This document shows, piece by piece, positions 13,318-40,448 of a stretch of 64,000 nt of DNA. The notes beneath the pieces are model-generated. The model saw only the letters and a program-made list of their open reading frames with translations, was not told where the DNA came from and ran no database searches. Position 1 is the first letter of the stretch. The number at the start of each line of letters is the position of its first letter. The stretch comes from an uncultured Bacilli bacterium (GTDB lineage Bacteria; Bacillota_I; Bacilli_A; RF39; UBA660): positions 31,863 through 95,862 of the forward strand of contig CALVOW010000001.1 of NCBI GenBank assembly GCA_944350445.1, given 5' to 3'. The translations under genes and the position numbers were made by a program.

Positions 13318-14658
13318 TTAAGATTCCTCGTCAACTATTTGATTTAATTGTTTAACACACTCATCTATATTGTCTGCCCCAATTAAATTACTAATAAAAA
13401 TTAAAATAGTTGGTATCAAATAAATTAAAACAGCAACAATTACACGTTTACCAAATTTTTTCCCAGCTGTTTTAATCCCTTCTTTATCATCTATAAATAC
13501 CACCTTGGCAAAATCAAATGATGTTAAAAGAATTAAAATAATTGGAATACCAATATAAATAATTTTTAAAACATTATTATTTAAAAATTCTAAAAAATCA
13601 TTACCAATAATAATTTGGCAAGTGTTTGTTAAATCATCATCAATTTTTGCTTCAAATAAATGCTCATAATAAATATATAAATTTAAATAAGAAGAACCTG
13701 GTTTAGTATCTGTAAAATGCCAACCATTTCCATCTTGAACAAGATAGGTTGGATAATTATCATAGTCACTTTCATCAATTGTCGATTTATAATCAGCTAA
13801 ATTAGTAATATCAAAATTACTACCATTAGCATTAATTTTATAGACATTATTTTCTTCTATAATAATGACTCTTTTTATTTTAGCACTAGCATTATAAGCT
13901 AGATAAATACCATAACCTGCATTTTGATCAGCATAATTTGTTTCACCTGTATATACCCAGTTAGTTTCAGTTTCAGAAGGATCAACATAAAAATCTCTTT
14001 TATTAAGCCAAGTTCTTGGCGAAATCTCTATATAAGGGGGACATTCATATGTAAAATTCCTAAATTCAAAACTTGGATTTGTATACTCAGAAACACCATC
14101 TTCAGTAATATTAGAAAATTCAATTGCTCCCCCATTTTTAGGTTTTAAAATTGAAAAAGAAAATGTTTGATATGTACTTTCAGTATTTTTATATGCACAA
14201 TTTAAACTATCATATTCATTAGTAACACTACTACCTCCACTATTTTCTACCCAAGAATCGCTAGTTGGTTGTAATTCACCATATTTTTCAAAAGTACCAG
14301 CCATGCTACTAGCCCTATCAAAATAAATGTTATAATAAACCCCAGCACTATTTGTATAATATTTCCAATATAAAGTAGGACAAACTAAACTTTTATCATT
14401 AGAATCTTGAATATTATTTATAGATATTGAAGTTGGTACGAACACATAAATATTTAGTCCGTTAAACATATTATCACTTGTTATTGATGGTTGACTGTCA
14501 TTTTCACCATCATAACTGATTGTAACAGTGCCAACTAAAACTTGAGAATTAGTAGCATCATATAAATTGTAATAACACTCAACTCCATATGCTAAAGCAT
14601 CTATATTAAAAATAAATAAAGAAAGAAATCCAAATAAAATATACTTTAAGTATTTCAT
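13318..14658 (-). CDS. Exported protein P1. It has a signal peptide, an extracellular beta-rich domain and a conserved C-terminal two-helix membrane module.
   Basis: N-terminus MKYLKYILFGFLSLFIFNIDALAYG. C-terminus IPIILILLTSFDFAKVVFIDDKEGIKTAGKKFGKRVIVAVLIYLIPTILIFISNLIG…C. It is a paralog of 15104..16411. Confidence 0.45.
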   Translation of the reverse strand: MKYLKYILFGFLSLFIFNIDALAYGVECYYNLYDATNSQVLVGTVTISYDGENDSQPSITSDNMFNGLNIYVFVPTSISINNIQDSNDKSLVCPTLYWKYYTNSAGVYYNIYFDRASSMAGTFEKYGELQPTSDSWVENSGGSSVTNEYDSLNCAYKNTESTYQTFSFSILKPKNGGAIEFSNITEDGVSEYTNPSFEFRNFTYECPPYIEISPRTWLNKRDFYVDPSETETNWVYTGETNYADQNAGYGIYLAYNASAKIKRVIIIEENNVYKINANGSNFDITNLADYKSTIDESDYDNYPTYLVQDGNGWHFTDTKPGSSYLNLYIYYEHLFEAKIDDDLTNTCQIIIGNDFLEFLNNNVLKIIYIGIPIILILLTSFDFAKVVFIDDKEGIKTAGKKFGKRVIVAVLIYLIPTILIFISNLIGADNIDECVKQLNQIVDEES

Positions 14659-14737
14659 ATTTTCTACCCTTCTAGTTTATATAATTATAATAGCATAGAT
14701 TTTTAATTTTTACTATATCAAAAGAATTAATTAAAGT

Positions 14738-14830
14738 CTTTTAAACCTCATTTAATTCTTCAAGTGATTCTTCATTTTTTTCAACTTTCTTATCAAATTA
14801 TAAAGATAAATTATCCAAATCTTTTATAGT
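14738..14830 (-). pseudogene. Remnant copy of the dnaB-like 3' end, from a duplicated segment
   Basis: 14738..14830 is a near-identical DNA copy of 16481..16575, which is the last ~30 codons of the dnaB-like gene plus its downstream region. Confidence 0.5.
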
Positions 14831-15103: not shown

Positions 15104-16411
15104 TCAATTATTCCCACCTGCATTTTCAGCAACTTCTTCAAGTTGTTTTGCACACTCATCTATTTTATTAGCCCCTAATAAATTACTAACAAAAATTAAA
15201 ATCGTTGGTACTAAATAAATTAAAACAGCAACAATTACACGTTTTCCAAATCTTTTCCCAGCTTTTTGAATTCCTTCTTTATCATCTATAAATACCACCT
15301 TAGCAAAATCAAATGATGTTAAAAGAATTAAAACGATTGGAATACCAATATAAATAATTTTAAAAATATTATTATTTAAAAATTCTAAAAAATCATTTCC
15401 AAATATAACTTGACAAGTTGCTTCTAACTGATCCGTATTGCCCGAAATAGAAAATAGATGTTCGTTAAAAATATAAATATTTTTATACGTACCTGGCTTA
15501 CTTTCAGTAAATTCAAAACCTGAATCCGTTTCAACAAGATAAGTTGGATAATTCTTACCACTTGCAAATTCATCTTGATAATCACTCATATTATTAACAG
15601 TTACTTCCAAAGTATTTGAATAAGCTTTAAATCCACTTCCACTTTTTTGAATAATAATCCTTGGAGCCTTTGAATTACGATAAGCCAAGTAAATTGCATG
15701 AGCAGAATTTTCATCAGCAGTATTACTACTTCCAGTATAAACCCATTCAGTTGCACTGGTTGAAGGACTTATATTATATGTGTAACCATTTAAAATTCCA
15801 CTTGTTCGAACATTTATATACTGCGAACAAGAAAAACTATTAAAATTTTCAAATTTTACAATTGGGGTTAATAGTGCATTCTCTATGGCTGGATTAGTAA
15901 CTGTTAATTCATTAGTTGTTTTATTCCTTTGAATAGTAAAACTAACGGTCACTCCAGTATTATTAACATATTTACATGATAAGTCTTCATATTCATAGGT
16001 AGGCTTATTACTATTCTCAATCCAAGAAGTACTAGCAATATATTCTAAAGTTTTTATTTCAAAATCATTTGGAATATCTTTTTCATTAATAGCAATTCTA
16101 TACTGATTAGCACCCCAATAATTTCGATATCCTTGATATAAGTTTGGACAAGTTAAATCACCACTGCTTGTTTTGATATTATTTAAGGAAATTGTATCTG
16201 GAACCAAAAACAAACCTACACTAACTTTTTGATCATAAGTTATAACAGGACTATTTTCTCCATCATAACTAATATTGATAGTGGAAATGATTTGGTTAGA
16301 ATCATTTGGATTTACAATTTCATAATCACAACTAAGTCCATATGCCAAAGCATCTATATTAAAAATAAATAAAAAAAGAAATCCAAATAAAATATACTTT
16401 AAATATTTCAT
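15104..16411 (-). CDS. Exported protein P2, a paralog of P1 with the same signal peptide and C-terminal membrane module
   Basis: The N-terminal 25 aa and C-terminal ~90 aa are almost identical to P1. The central domain has diverged. The stop codon is TGA. Confidence 0.45.
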   Translation of the reverse strand: MKYLKYILFGFLFLFIFNIDALAYGLSCDYEIVNPNDSNQIISTINISYDGENSPVITYDQKVSVGLFLVPDTISLNNIKTSSGDLTCPNLYQGYRNYWGANQYRIAINEKDIPNDFEIKTLEYIASTSWIENSNKPTYEYEDLSCKYVNNTGVTVSFTIQRNKTTNELTVTNPAIENALLTPIVKFENFNSFSCSQYINVRTSGILNGYTYNISPSTSATEWVYTGSSNTADENSAHAIYLAYRNSKAPRIIIQKSGSGFKAYSNTLEVTVNNMSDYQDEFASGKNYPTYLVETDSGFEFTESKPGTYKNIYIFNEHLFSISGNTDQLEATCQVIFGNDFLEFLNNNIFKIIYIGIPIVLILLTSFDFAKVVFIDDKEGIQKAGKRFGKRVIVAVLIYLVPTILIFVSNLLGANKIDECAKQLEEVAENAGGNN

Positions 16412-16480
16412 ATTTCCTACCCTTCTAGTTTATATAATTATAATAACATAAATTTTTACTTTTTACCATATAAAAAAGAA

Positions 16481-17785
16481 TTAATTAAAGTCTTTTAAAA
16501 CCTCATTTAATTCTTCAAGTGATTCCTCATTCTTTTCAACTTTTTTATCAAACCATAAAGGTAAATTATCCAAATCTTTTAAATCTTTATTATTAACAGT
16601 CTTAGTTTCATTTTTCATGACAATCTTTTTAAACTTTTTATGTTCTTTTTTACAAACATCCATAGCATCAACAACGGTTTCAACTTTTAAACGCTTCCAC
16701 TGACCAACAATCGTTTCAATATAATCTTTATTTAATTTTTTATTATTAACTTTTAAAACATAATCAATTAAAACATTAACAACTCCCGGATTTAATTTTT
16801 GTTCTAACATTAAATTTTCAATTAATTTTTTATCGCGATTAGTAGGTTCTGTGTTACCATAACTTTTTCTTAAAAAATCATAAGGACTGGTATTTTCAAA
16901 CATATAAATTATTTTAGCTAACTTTGAATCTCCACCAAGCGGTGTTTTTAAATAGTCGGGTTGTTTATTATAAATTAAAGTTGGTAAACGTCCATTATTT
17001 TCAAATTGATAGAAATTTCTAGCACTTTTTCGAAGTTCATTTTTATCAATCATTCCTCGTTCATTTAAAGAATTTCTTACTAAGCCTTGCATATTCATAT
17101 TATCAATTTTATAAATATAAGCAAGGTTTAAAATAAGTTTTTTTGTCTCTTCACTAAAACATTTATCACTTACTAATCTCTTCGGAATACTACTAATTAA
17201 TAAATCAATATCTAAATTACTTTTCATTTGAATTTCTAACCAACTATCTTTTTGAATATCACTGTTATCAAATAACAAATTAGTATTTACTGATGAGGTA
17301 AAGACATCTTGAAACTCCTCGGTAATATCTTCATAGTCTTTTAAAGAAATTCTTGGTACTTTATAAAAAATTTGCAATTTTTCATACTCAACGGCTCCAA
17401 TATTATTATATAAAACAATATTTAAAATTGGATGATTAAAAAATTCATAAGATGAAAGTGGTGAATACAAAATATAGACATAATTATCAATTTCTCCTCT
17501 TTTTAAATATGTCTTTAAAAGACCAATCCCTTCTAATTTCCGTCTAGCATCAATAATACTATCTAATTTTAATTGCATATTGGTCATTAAATGATGATGA
17601 GTATATTCTAAACTTTCCTGCGATTTATTATTTAGATCATTATAAAATGTTAAATATAAAGAAATAGCTGTATAACCAATAATTGGCTGATATAAATTCG
17701 TTAATATCTTAATTTTTTCAGAAGTAATAATTCCTTTATTATAAATGAAATATTTATCAGCTGGCTCTAATTTAAAGTCTTGCAT
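16481..17785 (-). CDS. dnaB: Replication initiation / membrane attachment protein, DnaB/DnaD family
   Basis: The C-terminal DDBH2 motif Y-x-x-x-I-x-x-x-W is present (YIETIVGQW). Its position relative to thrS matches the Bacillus dnaB-dnaI ... thrS neighbourhood. Confidence 0.45.
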   Translation of the reverse strand: MQDFKLEPADKYFIYNKGIITSEKIKILTNLYQPIIGYTAISLYLTFYNDLNNKSQESLEYTHHHLMTNMQLKLDSIIDARRKLEGIGLLKTYLKRGEIDNYVYILYSPLSSYEFFNHPILNIVLYNNIGAVEYEKLQIFYKVPRISLKDYEDITEEFQDVFTSSVNTNLLFDNSDIQKDSWLEIQMKSNLDIDLLISSIPKRLVSDKCFSEETKKLILNLAYIYKIDNMNMQGLVRNSLNERGMIDKNELRKSARNFYQFENNGRLPTLIYNKQPDYLKTPLGGDSKLAKIIYMFENTSPYDFLRKSYGNTEPTNRDKKLIENLMLEQKLNPGVVNVLIDYVLKVNNKKLNKDYIETIVGQWKRLKVETVVDAMDVCKKEHKKFKKIVMKNETKTVNNKDLKDLDNLPLWFDKKVEKNEESLEELNEVLKDFN

Positions 17786-25244: not shown

Positions 25245-26207
25245 TTAATCTTTCTTATTTAAAGAAAGATAATCTTGAATTATTTTTTCGACTTCTTCTT
25301 TTTTTATATTTACACATGAACTAATTAAATCTATATCTAATTTTTGTTTATACATGTTAATAACAACATCTTTAGTTTTTTTATTGATTCCTTCTTCTAA
25401 AGCTTCAGCTCGTTCTTCTTTTCTAATGCCAGCCCAAATTCTCGCTTCTTCTTCCTCTTTGTTATAAAATCGGCCCCACATTTTTTCATCTTCAGTCATT
25501 TCCGTCAATACTCCTTCCATTAAATTTTTAATTTCCGGTTTCGTTCGAACATGTTCAATGATACTTTCAAAATCTTTTTGTTTAGTTACACACATGGCAG
25601 CTGATAGTAACATTAAATCCTCTTCATATGGTTCAAACATCCCTTGATAATTATTATCATACCAAAGATTATAACATTCGACAATATTAATATTTAAAAC
25701 TTTTTGCTTTTCAGATAAAATATAACCTTCTTCGTTACGAAATACATATTCATCAAAGACTTTTTTATTTATTTTATCAACATAAAAAGTATTAAAGTTA
25801 ACTAAGAAAGTTATGTCTAAGTTTTCAAAATCAGCTCCTTCTTCCAAACCACTAGTTGCAACTTCTTGCATATAGAAAATGTTTCTATCCATAATACTTT
25901 GATAAAACTTTTTCTTAACATTAACTTCTAAAATAATCTTTTTGGAATTAGTGGTATTAATAGATACAACTACATCTCTTTCTGTTTTTTTCTCACCCAA
26001 AGTATGATTTGGAATACTTAAAGGAGCAAGACTTACGCGACCAACAATATCTTTATATTCAACTTTTAAAATTCTTGATAATAATAAAGTTAGAATTTCT
26101 AAGTGTTCAGGATTAGCAAACATTATTTTAAAAGCTTCATCAAAGTAAAGGGGAATAATCTCTCCATCTTGCAAATTTCTTTTTTTCGTTAATATATTCT
26201 GTTTCAT
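25245..26207 (-). CDS. Rpn-family PD-(D/E)XK nuclease (YhgA-like 'putative transposase')
   Basis: N-terminal FDEAFKIMFANPEHL…LLL…IL plus a D…E.Q…R..Y core arrangement. Confidence 0.45.
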   Translation of the reverse strand: MKQNILTKKRNLQDGEIIPLYFDEAFKIMFANPEHLEILTLLLSRILKVEYKDIVGRVSLAPLSIPNHTLGEKKTERDVVVSINTTNSKKIILEVNVKKKFYQSIMDRNIFYMQEVATSGLEEGADFENLDITFLVNFNTFYVDKINKKVFDEYVFRNEEGYILSEKQKVLNINIVECYNLWYDNNYQGMFEPYEEDLMLLSAAMCVTKQKDFESIIEHVRTKPEIKNLMEGVLTEMTEDEKMWGRFYNKEEEEARIWAGIRKEERAEALEEGINKKTKDVVINMYKQKLDIDLISSCVNIKKEEVEKIIQDYLSLNKKD

Positions 26208-26514: not shown

Positions 26515-28407
26515 TTAAAGACTAATTTCAAAAGGCGAACTTTTTGTTCCTAACCCTCCTGTTATCTTAACCGCTGATGATAGATTGATAGATGGACGAG
26601 CGTCATTCATGCCAATCGACGGATCGCTGTAGTTCGCAAAGCCATTGCGACTCACGCGCCAGACGTTTGAGGAAGAAAGTGGAGTTATTAACCACATAAA
26701 TTCTGACGAAGAATATCCGCTTCCTTGTTGGCTTGCAAACATCTCTCCATATCTTGGTAGTCCAACATATCCGGTCCATGTATTTGTTGTTTTAGTACAA
26801 TTGGCTGTAGTTACTGTACTGCTTGTAACTTCACAAATTGCTGACTTATAATTATAATAATCTTCAACTATTCCTAAGTAATAAGTTCCTTCGACTAACA
26901 TATTTTTATAAGTTTCACTGATGGAGTTATACCAGGTATTATTCAAATAATAATCCCAGTATGTATCACTATCTCCACTTCCAAACGTTGTACTACTTGA
27001 AAAATTCTTCTCTATTACAGTATTATCATTATCTCTTACATAATCCATTTTATTTAATTTTGTGGTATTGTTTTCAATGCCAACGATTCGATACAACTCA
27101 CCATCAAAATTTACATATTCACCACTATTTCTTGTATTCAAAAGAGTGACACCAGCTGTTATTGTTTCTTTATCCCCACTTATTGTATATGGATCATCAC
27201 TAGTTCCTGTACCGCCATTTATTGTGATTCCTGATTGCAGATTGATGGATGGTCGAGTGCCATGCAGGGTACTCGACATACTGGTGGAGTACGCACCGCC
27301 GTTGGAGTAGTTGATGTACCAGACTCTCGAGTTCGAAGAAGAATAGGGATTCAGCAACCACCAACAATAACCGATATTTAAATAACCATTACTAGAACTT
27401 GTATTTTGATAACTCTTATAGTATTCATAACTATTTAAAAGCCCAACTGGGGCGGTTACCATGGTTGTTTCTGGCAATTTAGTGCTTACATCTGACACTG
27501 TTGAGGCATTGGAATTGGTGGCATTCCAACTAGCATCGGTAACGATGATATTTTCATAATTATATAAAGTACTCAAAAAATCTTCATTTAACCATTGATA
27601 TATATAAGAACTGGTACTCGCATCAGTATAGAAATTGACATCTTCGCCATAAGCAATTGTTGTAATTGCATCATCCGTTATCATTTTCATCGTACCATCT
27701 GGATAAATCGCCGTTATTCTCCATAGTTTACCACTATACCAAACATAATTAAAATCAATATTATCTGCTGAACCCGATATATAAGTTATTCCATCTTCAA
27801 CAACTGATACTTGGTCTGGAGAACTATTAATTGATGACAATATTTTATCACTTAAAGTATTAACTTGAAATACTTCTATTACAATTCTAGCGGTAAAAGT
27901 TTTATTCATATAAGTACTATCGGCTGTTTCCGATAACCACAATTTTACTTTGTAAGTTGCTGTTTCTAAAACATCTAAAACACCACCAGTATCAATATAA
28001 TAATCTTCACTTAAAGTCTTTGGACTATTATAACCTGTATCATTTTTATTGGAAATAAAGCGAATTACACTTTTAAGTTCAGGGTTAGTTGAAGTCTCTT
28101 CAATATAGACATTATACTGAGCTGTAAAATCACCTGTATTTTTTACTGTAAAAATAAGTTCATCACTTTGACTCATTCCTTCACTATCTGACATAGGAAC
28201 AGCATTATTAATAGTTAATTCATTAGTTTCACTATCAATAAACGTTACTTCTAATAAACCGACATTCATAACATAAGTATTTTCTCCTTGATCGCTACTT
28301 CGAAGTAGTGCATAACTAGTTCCTAATAAAAGAACAACTGCTAATATAATCAAAAAGACTGGTAAAAACTTTTTAAACTCCTTGTTAAACTTTAAATATT
28401 CTTTCAT
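26515..28407 (-). CDS. Secreted/membrane-anchored protein with two CLec/DUF1566-like modules (WRLPT..EL ... YWSST ... VRcV type)
   Basis: N-terminal signal anchor. Two ~75-aa modules: …GLLNSYEYY…CWWLLNPYSSSNSRVWYINYSNGGAYS…GTRPSINL, and …VGLPRYGEM…MWLITPLSSSNVWRVSRNGFANYSDP…DARPSINL. Each is encoded by a locally GC-rich DNA patch. Confidence 0.5.
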   Translation of the reverse strand: MKEYLKFNKEFKKFLPVFLIILAVVLLLGTSYALLRSSDQGENTYVMNVGLLEVTFIDSETNELTINNAVPMSDSEGMSQSDELIFTVKNTGDFTAQYNVYIEETSTNPELKSVIRFISNKNDTGYNSPKTLSEDYYIDTGGVLDVLETATYKVKLWLSETADSTYMNKTFTARIVIEVFQVNTLSDKILSSINSSPDQVSVVEDGITYISGSADNIDFNYVWYSGKLWRITAIYPDGTMKMITDDAITTIAYGEDVNFYTDASTSSYIYQWLNEDFLSTLYNYENIIVTDASWNATNSNASTVSDVSTKLPETTMVTAPVGLLNSYEYYKSYQNTSSSNGYLNIGYCWWLLNPYSSSNSRVWYINYSNGGAYSTSMSSTLHGTRPSINLQSGITINGGTGTSDDPYTISGDKETITAGVTLLNTRNSGEYVNFDGELYRIVGIENNTTKLNKMDYVRDNDNTVIEKNFSSSTTFGSGDSDTYWDYYLNNTWYNSISETYKNMLVEGTYYLGIVEDYYNYKSAICEVTSSTVTTANCTKTTNTWTGYVGLPRYGEMFASQQGSGYSSSEFMWLITPLSSSNVWRVSRNGFANYSDPSIGMNDARPSINLSSAVKITGGLGTKSSPFEISL

Positions 28408-28458: not shown

Positions 28459-31400
28459 TTACTTTTTTGTTAATTCTAATCTTAATCTTTTTTCATCGAC
28501 TCTAATAAATTCATAATTATCTGTATTTATAGTACTAAAATCTGTATAAGCAATATCAATTAATTCTCCATAGTAAGTTTTATCATTAGATGTTGTTTTA
28601 ATATAAATAGCATAATTACCAGTTTTTAAATTTGTTAAATCGATCTCTTTTTGAAACCAAGCTCTTGTTTTATCTAATTTGTCATCAACTGGTAAAACTA
28701 CTTGATAATCACCATTATCAATATAAGAAATATCATAAGTATATCTTTCAAAAGTTTTGGTATTTTCAAAAATAAGTTCTCTTTTTACTGTATCACTCTT
28801 TGAATAAGATACAAAGGCATTATGACTTGTTCCTTTTATTTTTAAAGTATTACCACTAAGTGATAATTCATTAAAGAAATTATACATTGGATCCATACTA
28901 GGTGGTATGTCATAACTTAATAGACCATTATCACGAATTGTAAGTAAAATTGGACTTCCGGCATAACTATAATCTACATCAAACGAGAAACCTCTTGTTT
29001 TTGTCTCTACTCTTCTTGGCATTTCTTGATAAGCAATATTCGTAAAATAAGTGCTTGTCATATAACCAGTATCAGTATTATAGGCAGTAATTGAGATAGT
29101 ATAATCACCTTGTTTAATATTCGTACTAGATAAATCAACTTCACCCATAAACCAACCACCAGAATAATCATAGGCCTTATCATCATCTAAACTAGACATT
29201 TCATAAGGATAATCTAAATATTCATCCATTGTAAACGTATAAGTTTCCTCAGTTTCTTGATTATAGAAAGTTAATTCATGAATAACATTTTTATTATCCA
29301 TTTTTTTAACTCCTAAGAAGCCTTTAAAAAGAAACTTCGTATCACTTACTTGTTCTAAAGACTCATACATGAACAAAGGATTTCCCTCTTGATAATTAGA
29401 AACGGTAACCGTAATTGTTTTTGATACTTTCTCACCCTTTGAATCCGATACTTCATAAGTAACTTCATACTTTCCAGCTTTACTTGTATTAACATTATTT
29501 TTAGTTATTTTAATATCTGAAGTTAAATTACCATCTTCTTGGTCATAAGCTGTAACTCCCTCTTTTGGATCAAAATTTTCGTATAAATATAAAGTTTTAT
29601 TACTAGCTGTAATACTAGGTACTTGATTTAATTTATCTAAAGTATAAGAAAGAGTTCCTTTACTAGTTGAAATATTTGTATTTAACCAAGCATAAGTATT
29701 ATCAACTCCATAATGAATTTTTATCCATAAATCATTGTTATAAGTCATCTTATCAACAATAACTGTATAAGTATCTGTATAAAGACTACCTAAAACACTT
29801 CCCCCAGGACTTGTAAAGACATTTAAATAATCACCACTATTTAAAAGATTAACTTTTAAAATATCTTTATTAGAAAAACTAAGATCACTAGCCTTAATCC
29901 AACCTTTTTGATTTTTACTATAGTCAACTGTTACCATATAGGCAACTACTTTTCCATCATCATCTTTAGCTTCCATAAAAACGGTTGTTAAATGGCCTTT
30001 TTTAATCGTTTTTCCACTTAAAACTGATAAAGTAGCTGTATCATAAACAGAAGTATCCTTAGTAATTAAGCCAACTTTTGGTTCGTAGGTAGCATTGGTT
30101 GCATATTCTTTATATGTATAATTTTTCTCAATATTCGAAAAATTATTAGTATTATACTCGCCATTTTTTGATTTATTAATTTTATCAATAAAAGATGAAT
30201 GCACATAGACATAAGAATCCCAATTATAATAATTACTAAATGAACAACTTTGAATTCTAGTTCTTCCTGAGACTAAATTGGGATCACTAGCTATTTTATA
30301 CCATTTGGTACTACCATTATAACTATCTCCTTCAACCTCACCTAAAATAATAACAGGAATATTTTCATACTTTAATTGATAAGGAATAGCACTTATCATA
30401 TTTGGTTCTGTTCTTGTATTAATACTATCAATATTAGTAATTCCTAGTTGATAATAATTATAATCTAAATAACCATTATCTCGATCGAATAAATAGTAGT
30501 AATTAGCAGCTTTCTCTCCCCATAAAGGATCACTAGCATATTTAATATTCATACCACTACTTTTATTTCCAACATTAGATCCATAATATCTATAATCATT
30601 TGGATTTGCATAGGAACAATTAATATAATTATTAGCATGACCAATAATACTTTGATAAGGATTTAAATAACCCGTTGCTGAATCATAGGCTGACGAATCA
30701 TAAGCAGTATGCCCAAATAAATTATTTTTATTAATAGCAATTGAACTTTGTCCAAGAGAAGATTCATTAGTAGCAAGAGCCATCATCAAAATAGCATTAG
30801 CACCATATAAAGTTTCACTTGATTTAAAAAATATTCCCGTTTGATACATATTAGAGTATCCTGCAACATATTTTTTTCCATAAATTGTTCCAATTAAATT
30901 ACGATTATTTTTTAAATAAGCATCAATATCATCAGCTGAATAATTAGATCTAGCTCGATGTGGTAAATACATATAATAGTTATAATAAGGATTATTATAA
31001 TTAACACTATTTTCATAAGTATCATTCATATAATCTTTAATCATATCACTAGCATATTTATAAAAATAAATACCATCATGACTATAATATCTACCCTCAG
31101 GTAAAAAACTTGGTTTATCATCTAATTCTCTGCCAAATTGCGAATATAAAGTTTGAATATCCTTCGAATAATAATGCCAAAGCGATTTATCAGTTACTTG
31201 ATAATAACTATAACTACCCGTAAAATTTAAAGGTACAATAACATAATTACCATCTTTAATCCATCCAGTAACCCCATTAGTTTTTACTTTAATACCATAA
31301 TTACTATAATTAAGCTCTAAGAATACTCCATCCGTTGCTCCATAACTATTATGATGATTCATATAAGCAATATTTGTTTTAAAAGAAGAATCAGAATAAT

Positions 31401-31719
31401 AATAAGTATTTTCATCAACAGGATTAACCCCTAAATAAACAAGAGCCATCTTAGCATCTATTACTCTGGTTGTATTATTTTTTCTTTCTAAAATAACTAA
31501 ATTATCATTATCCGTTTTAGCCATCTCAGCCTTAGCTGTTTGATAATCATCAAAACATTTAACACTAGTTAACGATTTATCACTATTAGCAATAGCAAGT
31601 TCTATATTACTACATACATTTCTTTTAGAAATCTCACTACTTGTTAACCCAGAAACATTACTAATGATAAAGAAGAAAAGAATATAAAAACATAATAAAT
31701 ATTTTTTCAAATTTACCAC
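28459..31719 (-). CDS. Large secreted cell-wall hydrolase with a GH73 N-acetylglucosaminidase domain, SH3b-like domains, a DUF5011 Ig-like domain and two C-terminal ~100-aa repeats
   Basis: GH73 motifs ESSLGQSSIA…NNLFGHTAYD and YASDPLWGEKA. SH3b-like WYKIASD. DUF5011-like VTAYDQEDGNLTSDIKI…GKYEVTYEVSDSKG. Signal peptide present. Confidence 0.55.
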   Translation of the reverse strand: MVNLKKYLLCFYILFFFIISNVSGLTSSEISKRNVCSNIELAIANSDKSLTSVKCFDDYQTAKAEMAKTDNDNLVILERKNNTTRVIDAKMALVYLGVNPVDENTYYYSDSSFKTNIAYMNHHNSYGATDGVFLELNYSNYGIKVKTNGVTGWIKDGNYVIVPLNFTGSYSYYQVTDKSLWHYYSKDIQTLYSQFGRELDDKPSFLPEGRYYSHDGIYFYKYASDMIKDYMNDTYENSVNYNNPYYNYYMYLPHRARSNYSADDIDAYLKNNRNLIGTIYGKKYVAGYSNMYQTGIFFKSSETLYGANAILMMALATNESSLGQSSIAINKNNLFGHTAYDSSAYDSATGYLNPYQSIIGHANNYINCSYANPNDYRYYGSNVGNKSSGMNIKYASDPLWGEKAANYYYLFDRDNGYLDYNYYQLGITNIDSINTRTEPNMISAIPYQLKYENIPVIILGEVEGDSYNGSTKWYKIASDPNLVSGRTRIQSCSFSNYYNWDSYVYVHSSFIDKINKSKNGEYNTNNFSNIEKNYTYKEYATNATYEPKVGLITKDTSVYDTATLSVLSGKTIKKGHLTTVFMEAKDDDGKVVAYMVTVDYSKNQKGWIKASDLSFSNKDILKVNLLNSGDYLNVFTSPGGSVLGSLYTDTYTVIVDKMTYNNDLWIKIHYGVDNTYAWLNTNISTSKGTLSYTLDKLNQVPSITASNKTLYLYENFDPKEGVTAYDQEDGNLTSDIKITKNNVNTSKAGKYEVTYEVSDSKGEKVSKTITVTVSNYQEGNPLFMYESLEQVSDTKFLFKGFLGVKKMDNKNVIHELTFYNQETEETYTFTMDEYLDYPYEMSSLDDDKAYDYSGGWFMGEVDLSSTNIKQGDYTISITAYNTDTGYMTSTYFTNIAYQEMPRRVETKTRGFSFDVDYSYAGSPILLTIRDNGLLSYDIPPSMDPMYNFFNELSLSGNTLKIKGTSHNAFVSYSKSDTVKRELIFENTKTFERYTYDISYIDNGDYQVVLPVDDKLDKTRAWFQKEIDLTNLKTGNYAIYIKTTSNDKTYYGELIDIAYTDFSTINTDNYEFIRVDEKRLRLELTKK

Positions 31720-38080: not shown

Positions 38081-38653
38081 TTATTCTCTTTCTTGACTCG
38101 CCATATAATCTATAAATTCATAATTAGGAAATAAGAGAATAGAATCAGATGCAAATTCTTCTACTTGTTGTTTAATTAAATTACATGTCGTACTTTGAAA
38201 ATTATTAGCTAAAACTCCATAAGAAAATTCTTTTTCACAAATAAATTCTTCGGTTTCTCTATCATATTCACCTTTAAAGATAGCATTAACTGCATCATAA
38301 GAAATTCGATAAGTAAAAATTAAAGAATTATCTCGGTAATCAAAAGTTTCCGTTAAAGAAGAAGTTACACCTTCTTGGTAATCTTCTATATTTCTTGTTA
38401 ATCGAAAAGTAGCTATACTAAATGATTCTTTTGAATAAGTAACGGGAACTTTTAAAGATACATAATAGTCATATTCTTCTTTTTTCAAAGTAGAAATTTG
38501 TTTTTCATATAAATCACCATTATTTGTATACCCTTGTTTTAATAAATAACTAGTAATTCTTTCCTCAATGTTTGGTTTTATAATAATACTTAAAAGAACA
38601 ATAATAGCAATTACAATTAAAAAAACAATAATTAATTTTTTATACTTTTTCAT
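38081..38653 (-). CDS. Hypothetical membrane-anchored protein (last gene of the P3-P4 operon)
   Basis: N-terminal TM. No recognisable domain. Confidence 0.3.
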   Translation of the reverse strand: MKKYKKLIIVFLIVIAIIVLLSIIIKPNIEERITSYLLKQGYTNNGDLYEKQISTLKKEEYDYYVSLKVPVTYSKESFSIATFRLTRNIEDYQEGVTSSLTETFDYRDNSLIFTYRISYDAVNAIFKGEYDRETEEFICEKEFSYGVLANNFQSTTCNLIKQQVEEFASDSILLFPNYEFIDYMASQERE

Positions 38654-38661
38654 ACATTCTC

Positions 38662-39693
38662 CTAATTACTAAGACCATCTATCCTATTTTTAGCACTACT
38701 GGTATAACCAAATGGATCACTAGATGAAGTTGGATGGGTATAGTAAGTATAAACTGCCCCCATTTCATTATAAATAACTGTAACATCTTGAATATAATTA
38801 GAATGATTTTCAAAAGCACTTCTTGATGTATAAGTTTTTCCATTAGTAACAATTTTTTCTAAATCACCGACCCAATCATGTTCATCAACATAAAAAGGTA
38901 AAGTCCTTTGACCATCGATTAAAACTTCCCTGACAGCACTTAAGACATCGCTTTTTAAATTAGTGTTTTTATAAGTTCCTTTATTAGCCGGAGCCCACCA
39001 ACCACAATTCATTACATAATCATAAAGACTACTATTTTTCCATTTGCTTCCTTTAATAATTTCTAATTCATATCTATTAGCCATTAAAGAAGCTTCAGCA
39101 GCTGCTCCAATAGCACTTCCTTGTTCTCTTTGACAAATTTTGGCTAAATCTTCAAGCTCTGAATTGGTTAAATTATACTTTTGTCCAACTGATACTCCCC
39201 CAGTTGAACCACTTCCAGATGATGAACTACCAGAAGAATTACTGGCATTAGCTAGATTATTTTTAACAAGTTCAGCTTGTTCTTGTTTATACTTTTCAGC
39301 TAGTTGCAATAACTCATTTCTTTTTGCGTCTTCGGCTTGTTTTTCTCTTTCTCTTTCTAAATTTTCATAATATTCAATATTAGAAACATTAGCAAGACAA
39401 CTTTGATAATCTAAAGAAGCTGAAAAAGTATTTTCAATAATAGAAACAATAAAATTAACAAGCATAGGTGTTAAAAAAACGATAATAGCAGCAACTATCC
39501 GATTAAAACTATTTTTAAAAATAGTACTTAGAGATTCTCCACTCCCCGCTACCATACCTTTATAAAAATCCATAATAAGCTTTACTATTAATCCAATTGG
39601 AACAGCTATACTTATTACTTGTAAAGCAATTTTAAAATAAAGTAAAATTCTTAAAAAGACAACATTTGTACAAATCATATGACACCCTACCAA
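38662..39693 (-). CDS. Membrane-anchored SleB/CwlJ-like (Hydrolase_2) cell-wall hydrolase (P4). Its N-terminus is homologous to the C-terminal module of P1-P3.
   Basis: N-terminus IAVPIGLIVKLIMDFYKG…FNRIVAAIIVFLTPMLVNFIVSII, a Ser/Gly-rich linker, then ELEDLAKICQREQGSAIGAAAEASLMANR (compare SleB LLARiIyaEargE..Gq.AVaaVvlNR). Confidence 0.45.
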   Translation of the reverse strand: MVGCHMICTNVVFLRILLYFKIALQVISIAVPIGLIVKLIMDFYKGMVAGSGESLSTIFKNSFNRIVAAIIVFLTPMLVNFIVSIIENTFSASLDYQSCLANVSNIEYYENLEREREKQAEDAKRNELLQLAEKYKQEQAELVKNNLANASNSSGSSSSGSGSTGGVSVGQKYNLTNSELEDLAKICQREQGSAIGAAAEASLMANRYELEIIKGSKWKNSSLYDYVMNCGWWAPANKGTYKNTNLKSDVLSAVREVLIDGQRTLPFYVDEHDWVGDLEKIVTNGKTYTSRSAFENHSNYIQDVTVIYNEMGAVYTYYTHPTSSSDPFGYTSSAKNRIDGLSN

Positions 39694-39797
39694 AAAAATT
39701 ATATCATATCTGAATATGAATATATATATTTTTTTAAAAAATAAATGATGTTAAAAAACATCATAAAAATTATTGATTAAAAATTATTAATAAAATA

Positions 39798-40448
39798 CTA
39801 TTCTGTAATATTCTCTGTTGTTTTAAATGTATTTACACAACTTTCAATTTCTTCAGTTCCTAATAAATTAGTAAGAAAAATCAAAATAGTCGGTACTAAA
39901 AAAATTAAAACTGAAGCTATTGCTCTTCTTGAAAAGCGTTTAAAAGCACCACTAAGTCCATCTTTATCATCAGAAAAAACTAACTTAGCAAAATCAAAAG
40001 TTGAGAAAAGAATCAAAGCAATTGGTATTATATAATAAATCATTCGAAAAACATTATTTTTCAATAAATTAATAAGTTGATAACCAAATAAATCTTCACA
40101 ATTGGTAATATCAGTTGCCATATCATCAAATGAAATATTATGAATTTTTGATGATAGAATGTAAACATTTTGAGCTATTTCTTTAGTATCTGAAAAAGTG
40201 TACTCATCATTTATCTTTAAAATATATAATGGATAATTAGAGTCACTACCACTTGCTAAGACACTTTGATAAGTACCTAGATTTTGAATAGTAATGGTTT
40301 CATCATTTGCTTTAACTTCCCAAGTTTCTTTATCAATTATAATTGATCCACTTTCTGATAAATTAAAATAAACGATACTTTCTCCTTCGGCTTTTACATT
40401 TAAAAAGATAAAAAAGAAAGCAAAAACAACAATAATAATTTTTTTCAA
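39798..40448 (-). CDS. Exported protein P3, a short member of the P1/P2 family with the same C-terminal membrane module
   Basis: Signal peptide, then …NYPLYIL…NCEDLFGYQLINLLKNN…IPIALILFSTFDFAKLVFSDDKDG…FLVPTILIFLTNLLG…SC. Confidence 0.45.
   Translation of the reverse strand: MKKIIIVVFAFFFIFLNVKAEGESIVYFNLSESGSIIIDKETWEVKANDETITIQNLGTYQSVLASGSDSNYPLYILKINDEYTFSDTKEIAQNVYILSSKIHNISFDDMATDITNCEDLFGYQLINLLKNNVFRMIYYIIPIALILFSTFDFAKLVFSDDKDGLSGAFKRFSRRAIASVLIFLVPTILIFLTNLLGTEEIESCVNTFKTTENITE

Follow-up and report, generated by a model that had tools for sequence, protein, structure and literature searches.

Introduction

How does one small membrane module come to stand at the C-terminus of exported surface proteins and also at the N-terminus of a putative cell-wall hydrolase? 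The question is raised by a 64-kb stretch of DNA (26% G+C) from an uncultured Bacilli bacterium (GenBank contig CALVOW010000001.1), which was analysed at its full length and is called the window here. The five open reading frames (ORFs) concerned all lie on its minus strand and are present as initially annotated: P1 (13318..14658), P2 (15104..16411), P3 (39798..40448), P4 (38662..39693, with a start revised below) and ORF190 (38081..38653). P1–P4 share a two-helix hairpin. They are best read as fusions of a pilin hairpin that stem from a type IV secretion system, three of them surface proteins and one a VirB1-like wall hydrolase.

The TrbC and VirB2 pilins of type IV secretion systems undergo head-to-tail cyclisation, and the Agrobacterium operon has the gene order virB1-virB2-virB3-virB4. 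Recent literature has it that the type IV secretion systems of Gram-positive bacteria, Patescibacteria excepted, have no VirB2 homologues (PMC12857230, PMC12102498); the chromosomal type IV secretion system of Patescibacteria is described there as having arrays of VirB2-like pilins (PMC12102498; reviewed in PMC12857230). The family to which the present module is related is known from Pfam. Its abundance in Bacillota together with its linkage to secretion genes is unusual, as are the fusion architectures, the families represented by the C-terminal domain of P4 (HYD) and by ORF190, and a probable cysteine clamp at the ends of the hairpin.

The shared hairpin module

P1 (446 amino acids) has a Sec signal peptide (aa 1–23, ending ...IDALA before YG), a beta-rich ectodomain (aa ~25–330) and a C-terminal pilin-type hairpin, which is encoded at 13357..13620 and runs from Cys347 through a first transmembrane helix, the loop DDKEGIKTAGKKFGKR and a second transmembrane helix to Cys434. 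P2 (435 aa) is a tandem paralogue of P1 with its module at 15152..15415 (Cys333 to Cys420). P3 (216 aa) consists of a signal peptide, a short ectodomain that has its homologue in the C-terminal third of those of P1 and P2, and the module (39837..40100; Cys117 to Cys204). In P4 the module is N-terminal (39397..39672; Cys3 to Cys94).

Alignment of the four modules with MAFFT yields 16 invariant columns. In BLASTP comparisons P3 and P4 are 28% identical over 64 aa (E 1e-7), and P1 matches P3 at E 6e-41. A hidden Markov model (HMM) that was trained on N-termini of 37 P4 homologues alone, P1–P3 being left out, recovers the other three proteins at 1e-13 to 1e-14 (P3 at 2.5e-14, P2 at 9.5e-14 and P1 at 2e-13) and no further ORF of the window. 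These sequence comparisons, in which similarity lies far beyond chance, establish the homology of the four modules that the initial annotation had proposed, and the reversed placement it described, C-terminal after signal peptide and ectodomain in P1–P3 and N-terminal in P4, is borne out as well. Its estimate of ~60 aa was too small: the conserved unit is ~88 aa long and extends from a Cys before helix 1 to a Cys after helix 2.

The cysteine pair is the most conserved feature of the module. In a set of 230 different module sequences, all 196 residues aligned at the first site are Cys, as are 173 of the 181 aligned at the second. C347 and C434 are invariant across the 62-member alignment of the P1–P3 family; in the P4 family (37 homologues) C3 is invariant and C94 is kept in at least 90%.

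Relation to type IV secretion pilins

A profile of the four window modules was used for a HMMER search of 1.84 billion cluster representatives, of which 8378 match at E<=1e-3 and 1155 at E<=1e-10. When 74 of these relatives (ranks 77th to 150th of the profile matches) were checked against Pfam, 51 matched PF18895 (T4SS_pilin), with a best E of 6.3e-10, and one additionally matched the TrbC/VirB2 family PF04956 (E 0.0028). PF18895 is also matched by 11 of the 37 P4 homologues (best E 2.7e-6), and P2 gives a weak NCBIfam match to NF045848, a mycoplasma conjugal-transfer family. Many relatives have only 96–134 aa, made up of a Sec signal peptide and then C...helix...DFAK...KR...helix...C, and so match a pilin precursor in both length and arrangement; short canonical forms of 135 and 145 aa also occur in one contig described below (L072; L numbers denote loci of relatives). 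The window proteins depart from the small precursor of PF18895 pilins, in which the signal peptide directly precedes a hairpin of ~70–100 aa: P1–P3 have 90–320 aa between signal peptide and hairpin, and P4 lacks a signal peptide and continues for 240 aa after the hairpin.

The profile matches place the module within, or on the edge of, Pfam PF18895, and the window proteins are, as judged from sequence, divergent members of this family or a sister subfamily. The initial annotation had recognised no named family; the wider family does have a name. It had also stated that a match to a well-characterised family with unrelated partners would refute its interpretation, and here the family is indeed named, but its partners in relatives are type IV secretion genes.

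Module genes and secretion genes in relatives

Linkage of module genes to secretion genes is observed at several loci. In a sister clade (L019, L022, L023, L026, L085 and L086), P4 is 37% identical to the window P4 over its full length. The gene order there is P4, ORF190, a Band_7 protein and a 265–414-aa protein with a C-terminal module, followed by TrbL_4/VirB6, a 110-aa VirB3-like protein, a TraC-like protein, VirB4 and a 749-aa hydrolase with SpoIID and NlpC/P60 domains. VirB4 and the genes beyond it are seen where the sequence stretch extends that far (VirB4 in L085, L086 and L022), and L026 has the same order over the stretch available, minus the Band_7 gene. A P4 orthologue heads the secretion cluster in L085, whereas the window locus is without secretion genes. 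A module protein is also encoded upstream of VirB6, VirB3 and VirB4 in L070. In an 8.5-kb contig from an uncultured Bacilli bin (L072:2-8507), module genes take up nearly the whole length: at least eight of them follow one another (145, 135, 383, 423, 355, 322 and 324 aa, and one partial), and the array ends at a VirB6-like gene. In all, clustering with virB6/virB3/virB4 is found in L085, L086, L022, L019, L026, L070 and L072 and is not found in the window. The SPFH/Band_7 protein that lies between ORF190 and the module gene, before VirB6, is encoded at L085:11748-12953 and also at L022:7581-8852.

The window loci themselves are chromosomal sites that are syntenic in distant relatives. P1 and P2 are flanked by the genes for threonyl-tRNA synthetase (ThrRS) and a DnaB_2 protein, with FtsK and NrdD/NrdG nearby; the order dnaB–P2-like–P1-like–thrS recurs in L083 and dnaB–P1-like–thrS in L084. 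P3, P4 and ORF190 are flanked by a phosphoglycerate mutase-like gene and RNase J, with a D-Ala-D-Ala ligase-like gene just beyond the former (both '-like' assignments made by eye). The synteny P4–ORF190–RNase J is kept in L001, and the order P3-like–P4–ORF190 in L006 and L011. One NCBI genome encodes both a P4 homologue and a P1-type homologue (IJ068_01300, IJ068_07025). Two further pilin-like genes were noted near P4 homologues. One is a 75-aa ORF (L001:6786-7013) that is prepilin-like at its N-terminus (KKGFAISTMLYGLV...) and stands immediately upstream of two P4 paralogues in tandem; the other (L003:14613-16949) encodes a 778-aa protein with the type IV pilin motif N_methyl and lies downstream of P4 at a distance of ~5.6 kb.

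Diderm VirB2/TrbC/TraA pilins resemble the present module in their helix-loop-helix hairpin with both ends outside, their basic loop, their precursor with a signal peptide and their position upstream of virB3 and virB4. They differ in that no significant direct sequence similarity emerged here beyond the single PF04956 match given above; in addition, the window proteins are 2–4 times larger because of their fused domains, and no pilus has been observed. These gene orders in relatives mirror the logic of the Agrobacterium operon. The pilin arrays of Patescibacteria are a second parallel (PMC12102498). The published text consulted reports that the Patescibacteria pilins were found through the same Pfam family, PF18895 (PMC12102498), and further likenesses to that description are a monoderm, small-genome, uncultured organism, a chromosomal rather than plasmid location, tandem divergent pilin paralogues (2–11 genes there; P1/P2 and at least eight in L072 here) and a monoderm-type VirB6, VirB3 and VirB4 core, which is found here in relatives. 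The present host, in contrast, belongs to the Bacillota (class Bacilli), where reviews state that VirB2 homologues are lacking; the hairpin is fused here to ectodomains of 100–330 aa or to a wall hydrolase, fusions of which that text makes no mention; the window genes do not adjoin virB4; and the hairpin is flanked by a cysteine pair that is likewise not mentioned in that text. A PF18895-type family of this size in gut Bacillota, with several loci directly before VirB6, VirB3 and VirB4, bears on the origin of the Patescibacteria pilin arrays.

Topology and the cysteine pair

The module is predicted to comprise two hydrophobic helices joined by a charged cytoplasmic loop, with both ends outside. 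In the AlphaFold model of P4 the helices span residues 6–43 and 50–84, and in a combined hydrophobicity and K/R profile over the 230 modules the loop is K/R-rich just before helix 2. The ends of the hairpin are assigned to the outer side because a signal peptide and an ectodomain lie upstream of it in P1–P3 and a putative wall hydrolase lies downstream in P4. From these sequence features and the domain architecture, all domains fused to it in P1–P4 are predicted to be extracellular, which supports the interpretation in the initial annotation. Fusions occur on either side of the hairpin in relatives also: one L072 protein has the reverse order, HYD and then the module, and others carry CHAP, Big_2 and further hydrolase-like domains before or after it.

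With both ends outside, the two conserved cysteines would lie on the same outer side, and they probably form a disulfide that clamps the ends of the hairpin together. Such a clamp may be a functional analogue of the cyclisation of TrbC and VirB2, and the near-universal conservation of the pair makes this analogy a testable one.

P4, its HYD domain and ORF190

The most likely start of P4 is the ATG at 39678, which follows GGTAGGG; the ORF is present as initially annotated, but the TTG at 39693 is the less likely start. The resulting protein (38662..39678; 338 aa, MICTNVV...) consists of the N-terminal hairpin, a long helix, a Ser/Gly linker and the C-terminal HYD domain. The stalk and linker are encoded at 39190..39378: the helix, 46 residues long, covers aa 101–146 (DSSP on the model) and is followed by a Ser/Gly-rich segment (aa 147–163), so that the linker of the initial annotation is present; residues 145–159 have a pLDDT <50 and are disordered. 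HYD (38665..39189; aa ~164–338) is a domain without a family name; it is predicted to be extracellular, and its modelled fold weakly resembles that of SleB. The AlphaFold model of P4 has a mean pLDDT of 85, and HYD, a compact alpha+beta domain, reaches ~95. About 298 proteins share this architecture, nearly all of them without a name, and the full architecture is almost confined to genomes of uncultured gut and rumen bacteria that carry the label Bacilli, Tenericutes, Mollicutes or Erysipelotrichaceae, a few bins being labelled otherwise.

The top PDB fold matches of HYD in Foldseek are 4fet_B and 4fet_A, both the SleB catalytic domain (probabilities 0.99/0.91, E 0.16/0.36, target-normalised TM 0.51/0.61). 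This is the best and only notable fold match, and a local motif near the start of HYD, L..A......E.G...G.A.E/A....NR, also resembles the spore-cortex lytic transglycosylases SleB/CwlJ as judged by eye. Conserved residues of HYD include E185, Q186, E195, N201, W227, R258, EHD 266–268 and DPFGY 321–325. In contrast to the fold, no profile-level sequence match to SleB/CwlJ was found: Hydrolase_2 (PF07486) matches none of 37 full-length P4 homologues and none of 51 HYD-domain homologues, HYD has no Pfam or NCBIfam match, and profile searches of PDB sequences were likewise negative. HYD is also longer (~175 versus ~120 aa), with an extra beta-rich C-terminal half that ends in DPFGY, and its genomic context differs. 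The description of this region as a SleB-like Hydrolase_2 domain is therefore supported at the level of the fold, by AlphaFold and Foldseek, and not by a Hydrolase_2 sequence match. HYD and ORF190 are two well-conserved families without a Pfam model.

A role of HYD in wall hydrolysis is supported independently of its fold by its fusion partners and gene neighbourhood. HYD is found in proteins of 600–1976 aa together with Phage_lysozyme2, NlpC/P60, Peptidase_M23, Peptidase_C39_2, Glucosaminidase, ChW repeats and Big_3, and such large hydrolases directly follow a VirB4-type ATPase in at least 11 loci, mostly between VirB4 and VirD4. HYD is thus a building block of the VirB1-like hydrolases of monoderm conjugation systems, and P4 would be a putative VirB1-like, wall-cutting enzyme anchored by a VirB2-like hairpin. 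Gram-positive VirB1-like hydrolases (PrgK, TraG of pIP501, Orf14 of Tn916 and CwlT) share with P4 an N-terminal anchor and an extracellular peptidoglycan-degrading domain, the latter predicted in P4, and HYD occurs in hydrolases of this multi-domain type directly after VirB4. P4 differs from them in three respects: it is anchored by a pilin-type hairpin where they have a plain transmembrane helix, HYD is its sole putative enzymatic domain in place of SLT, muramidase, CHAP, NlpC/P60 or LytM, and it has a dedicated partner in ORF190.

Two side observations concern HYD. A secreted protein of 469 aa (P0075) has two tandem HYD domains and a C-terminal dockerin, which places HYD in cellulosome-type proteins also. 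In Clostridia loci, a 922-aa membrane protein encoded upstream of a HYD-bearing hydrolase (L066:1050-3815) contains an internal sub-threshold T4SS_pilin match (aa 182–245, E 8.9e-5) and has homologues in L077, L081, L060, L062 and L048.

ORF190 (190 aa) has an N-terminal membrane anchor and an ectodomain of ~160 aa, and its start lies 8 nt after the P4 stop codon. The initial annotation noted that it adjoins P4, and the partnership is real and conserved: homologues found with a three-round HMM adjoin P4 in ~36 distinct loci, usually 8–15 nt downstream and sometimes divergently upstream. In one protein (P0103, from a single contig) the two are fused, the stop codon being replaced by Gln, and in L003 a separate ORF190 paralogue also accompanies a module protein that lacks the hydrolase. 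A lipoprotein family that also follows conjugative HYD hydrolases takes the place of ORF190 after P4 in L031 and L041; comparison of this family with ORF190 by hhalign was negative. ORF190 has no PDB sequence match and no consistent Pfam match, PepSY included, and a dedicated homologue search for it returned four near-identical proteins only. The only invariant residues among 35 homologues are two cysteines, C139 and C157, and extracellular disulfides seem from the sequences to be a theme in this anaerobe lineage.

Proposed function and alternative explanations

In the explanation that we propose, the module is a VirB2-type hairpin that has been joined to extracellular domains in a lineage of Bacilli with small, AT-rich genomes from gut and rumen. 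P1–P3 consist of a signal peptide, a fast-diverging beta-rich ectodomain and then the hairpin; P4 consists of the hairpin, a helical stalk and a SleB-like putative wall hydrolase, which would act together with the anchored ORF190. The hairpins would place P1–P4 at, or co-assemble them into, one membrane platform or filament built by a monoderm type IV secretion core (VirB6, VirB3 and VirB4), where P4 with ORF190 could open the peptidoglycan locally and P1–P3 could present their variable ectodomains at the surface of the cell or on a fibre resembling a pilus. We judge the chances to be about even that P1–P4 are secretion-pilin hairpin fusions working at such a platform; the disulfide, the co-assembly of the hairpins, the cutting of the wall and the dependence on a secretion core in this genome are parts that we infer. 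The two architectures, a pilin hairpin with large variable ectodomains and a pilin hairpin with a wall hydrolase carrying a SleB-like domain, are new, and they hint at a way for a monoderm to present adhesins, or to cut its wall, where secretion takes place. It is also conceivable, though we think it unlikely, that the lineage keeps a chromosomally fixed, Patescibacteria-like type IV secretion apparatus in which pilin-adhesin (P1–P3) and pilin-hydrolase (P4) fusions assemble a decorated pilus or contact structure that serves a lifestyle dependent on a host or partner. Were this so, VirB2-type pili would exist in Bacillota and the pilin arrays of Patescibacteria would be of monoderm origin.

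Several observations weigh against a function at a secretion platform. No homologue of VirB4, VirB6, VirB3, VirD4 or a TraC-like protein was found in the 64-kb window with phmmer and family HMMs, and most P4 loci examined have no secretion core genes within 6 kb, so that a working secretion core in this genome is hypothetical. The secretion cluster of L085 has its own extra hydrolase, the 749-aa protein, and P4 is therefore not simply 'the' VirB1. In the Pfam scan the window proteins fall short of the curated PF18895 cut-off of 26.6 bits: P3 scores 18.6 bits (E 0.002), P2 scores 11.2 bits, and P1 and P4 give no match. Comparison of the module with Agrobacterium VirB2 and F TraA by hhalign was negative, though this is a weak test; the same limit applies to the hhalign comparison of HYD with SleB and CwlJ, which gave a probability <1%. 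The likeness of the HYD and SleB folds is itself weak (E 0.16, TM 0.5–0.6), and the module of P1 is modelled with moderate confidence only (pLDDT 60–74).

The absence of secretion core genes from the window and from the surroundings of most P4 loci also speaks for a rival explanation, namely that a pilin-derived hairpin now serves as a plain two-helix membrane anchor for which no secretion machine is needed. The anchor would replace anchoring by sortase or as a lipoprotein in a bacterium with a reduced genome, P1–P3 being variable surface proteins or adhesins and P4 with ORF190 a housekeeping autolysin pair. The positions of the genes in the core genome, among housekeeping genes and syntenic over large distances, fit such a role, as does the variety of ectodomains fused to the module, before or after the hairpin, among them CHAP, Big_2 and further domains that resemble hydrolases. 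Wherever the context is informative, however, the genes directly precede VirB6, VirB3 and VirB4. Across thousands of proteins, moreover, the D, F, K/R and P residues of the hairpin are very strongly kept along with its cysteine pair, which suggests specific contacts over mere hydrophobic anchoring, and the modules of P1 and P2 are 88% identical in nucleotide sequence versus 55% for their ectodomains. On balance we give this explanation a substantial but lesser share of belief.

There are two other explanations. The genes sleB and ypeB form a bicistronic arrangement with an N-terminally anchored partner, and P4 with ORF190, similarly arranged, could represent a germination enzyme of the SleB/YpeB type together with the partner anchored beside it; HYD has its best PDB fold match in the SleB catalytic domain, and L001 has YlbD_coat and YlbE genes close to the locus. 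We regard a spore-cortex-lytic pair as very improbable nonetheless, since Hydrolase_2 is matched by none of the 51 HYD-domain homologues, ORF190 is without a consistent Pfam match such as PepSY, HYD is used by conjugative hydrolases next to VirB4, and the N-terminus of P4 is a pilin hairpin instead of a peptidoglycan-binding domain. A two-helix membrane element beside a wall hydrolase also resembles holin–endolysin logic, and HYD is fused to Phage_lysozyme2 in some proteins; the hairpin would then act as a holin or as a signal-anchor-release element, with P4 as the endolysin. Against a lysis cassette of this kind, there is no significant PHROG match, tblastn with HYD finds no match in 50,697 phage records, the module has no match in IMG/VR, no phage genes lie nearby, the sites are conserved chromosomal ones and the module matches the secretion-pilin family instead. 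In tblastn searches of plasmid and phage sequences, neither HYD nor the module gave a match. We consider this last explanation very improbable too, and of the two options in the initial annotation, a 'holin-like or pilin-like partner module of a trans-envelope structure', the pilin-like one is favoured, while the holin-like one finds no support in PHROG, phage, plasmid or IMG/VR searches.

Ectodomains, gene duplication and intergenic features

The AlphaFold model of P1 has a mean pLDDT of 81, with ~90 for the beta-rich ectodomain, which has no meaningful fold match in the PDB (only GFP-like barrels, TM ~0.12–0.2) and none in BFVD. The ectodomain consensus of the P1 family contains a repeated C.Y...CP pattern. 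P1 and P2 are 96% identical in nucleotide sequence over the signal peptide, and the 55% identity of their ectodomains corresponds to 36% at the amino-acid level. An upstream repeat of ~165 nt precedes both genes (14659..14825 for P1 and 16412..16578 for P2, minus strand; 92% mean column identity), and the one upstream of P1 contains the final ~100 nt of the dnaB-like gene as a dead copy, together with the promoter and ribosome-binding site. Because the upstream regions are 92% copies that include this dead 3' end, P1 and P2 are taken to derive from a tandem duplication of a unit made up of the dnaB-like 3' end, the promoter and the module-protein gene. The combination of conserved ends and a divergent middle would fit either diversifying selection or cassette exchange.

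Between P3 and P4 an A/U-only hairpin with a U-run (39731..39783, minus strand) folds at -10.8 kcal/mol (z -2.6) and is possibly a terminator that splits P3 from a P4–ORF190 transcription unit. A consensus terminator scan misses it, the stem having no G-C pairs; promoter and terminator consensus scans in this DNA of 26% G+C gave counts not above shuffled controls and are uninformative. The region between the two module loci of the window encodes a PD-(D/E)XK-family transposase (25245-26207), a 630-aa protein with a weak DUF6273 match (26515-28407) and a 1086-aa surface protein with Glucosaminidase, SH3 and Ig-like domains (28459-31719).

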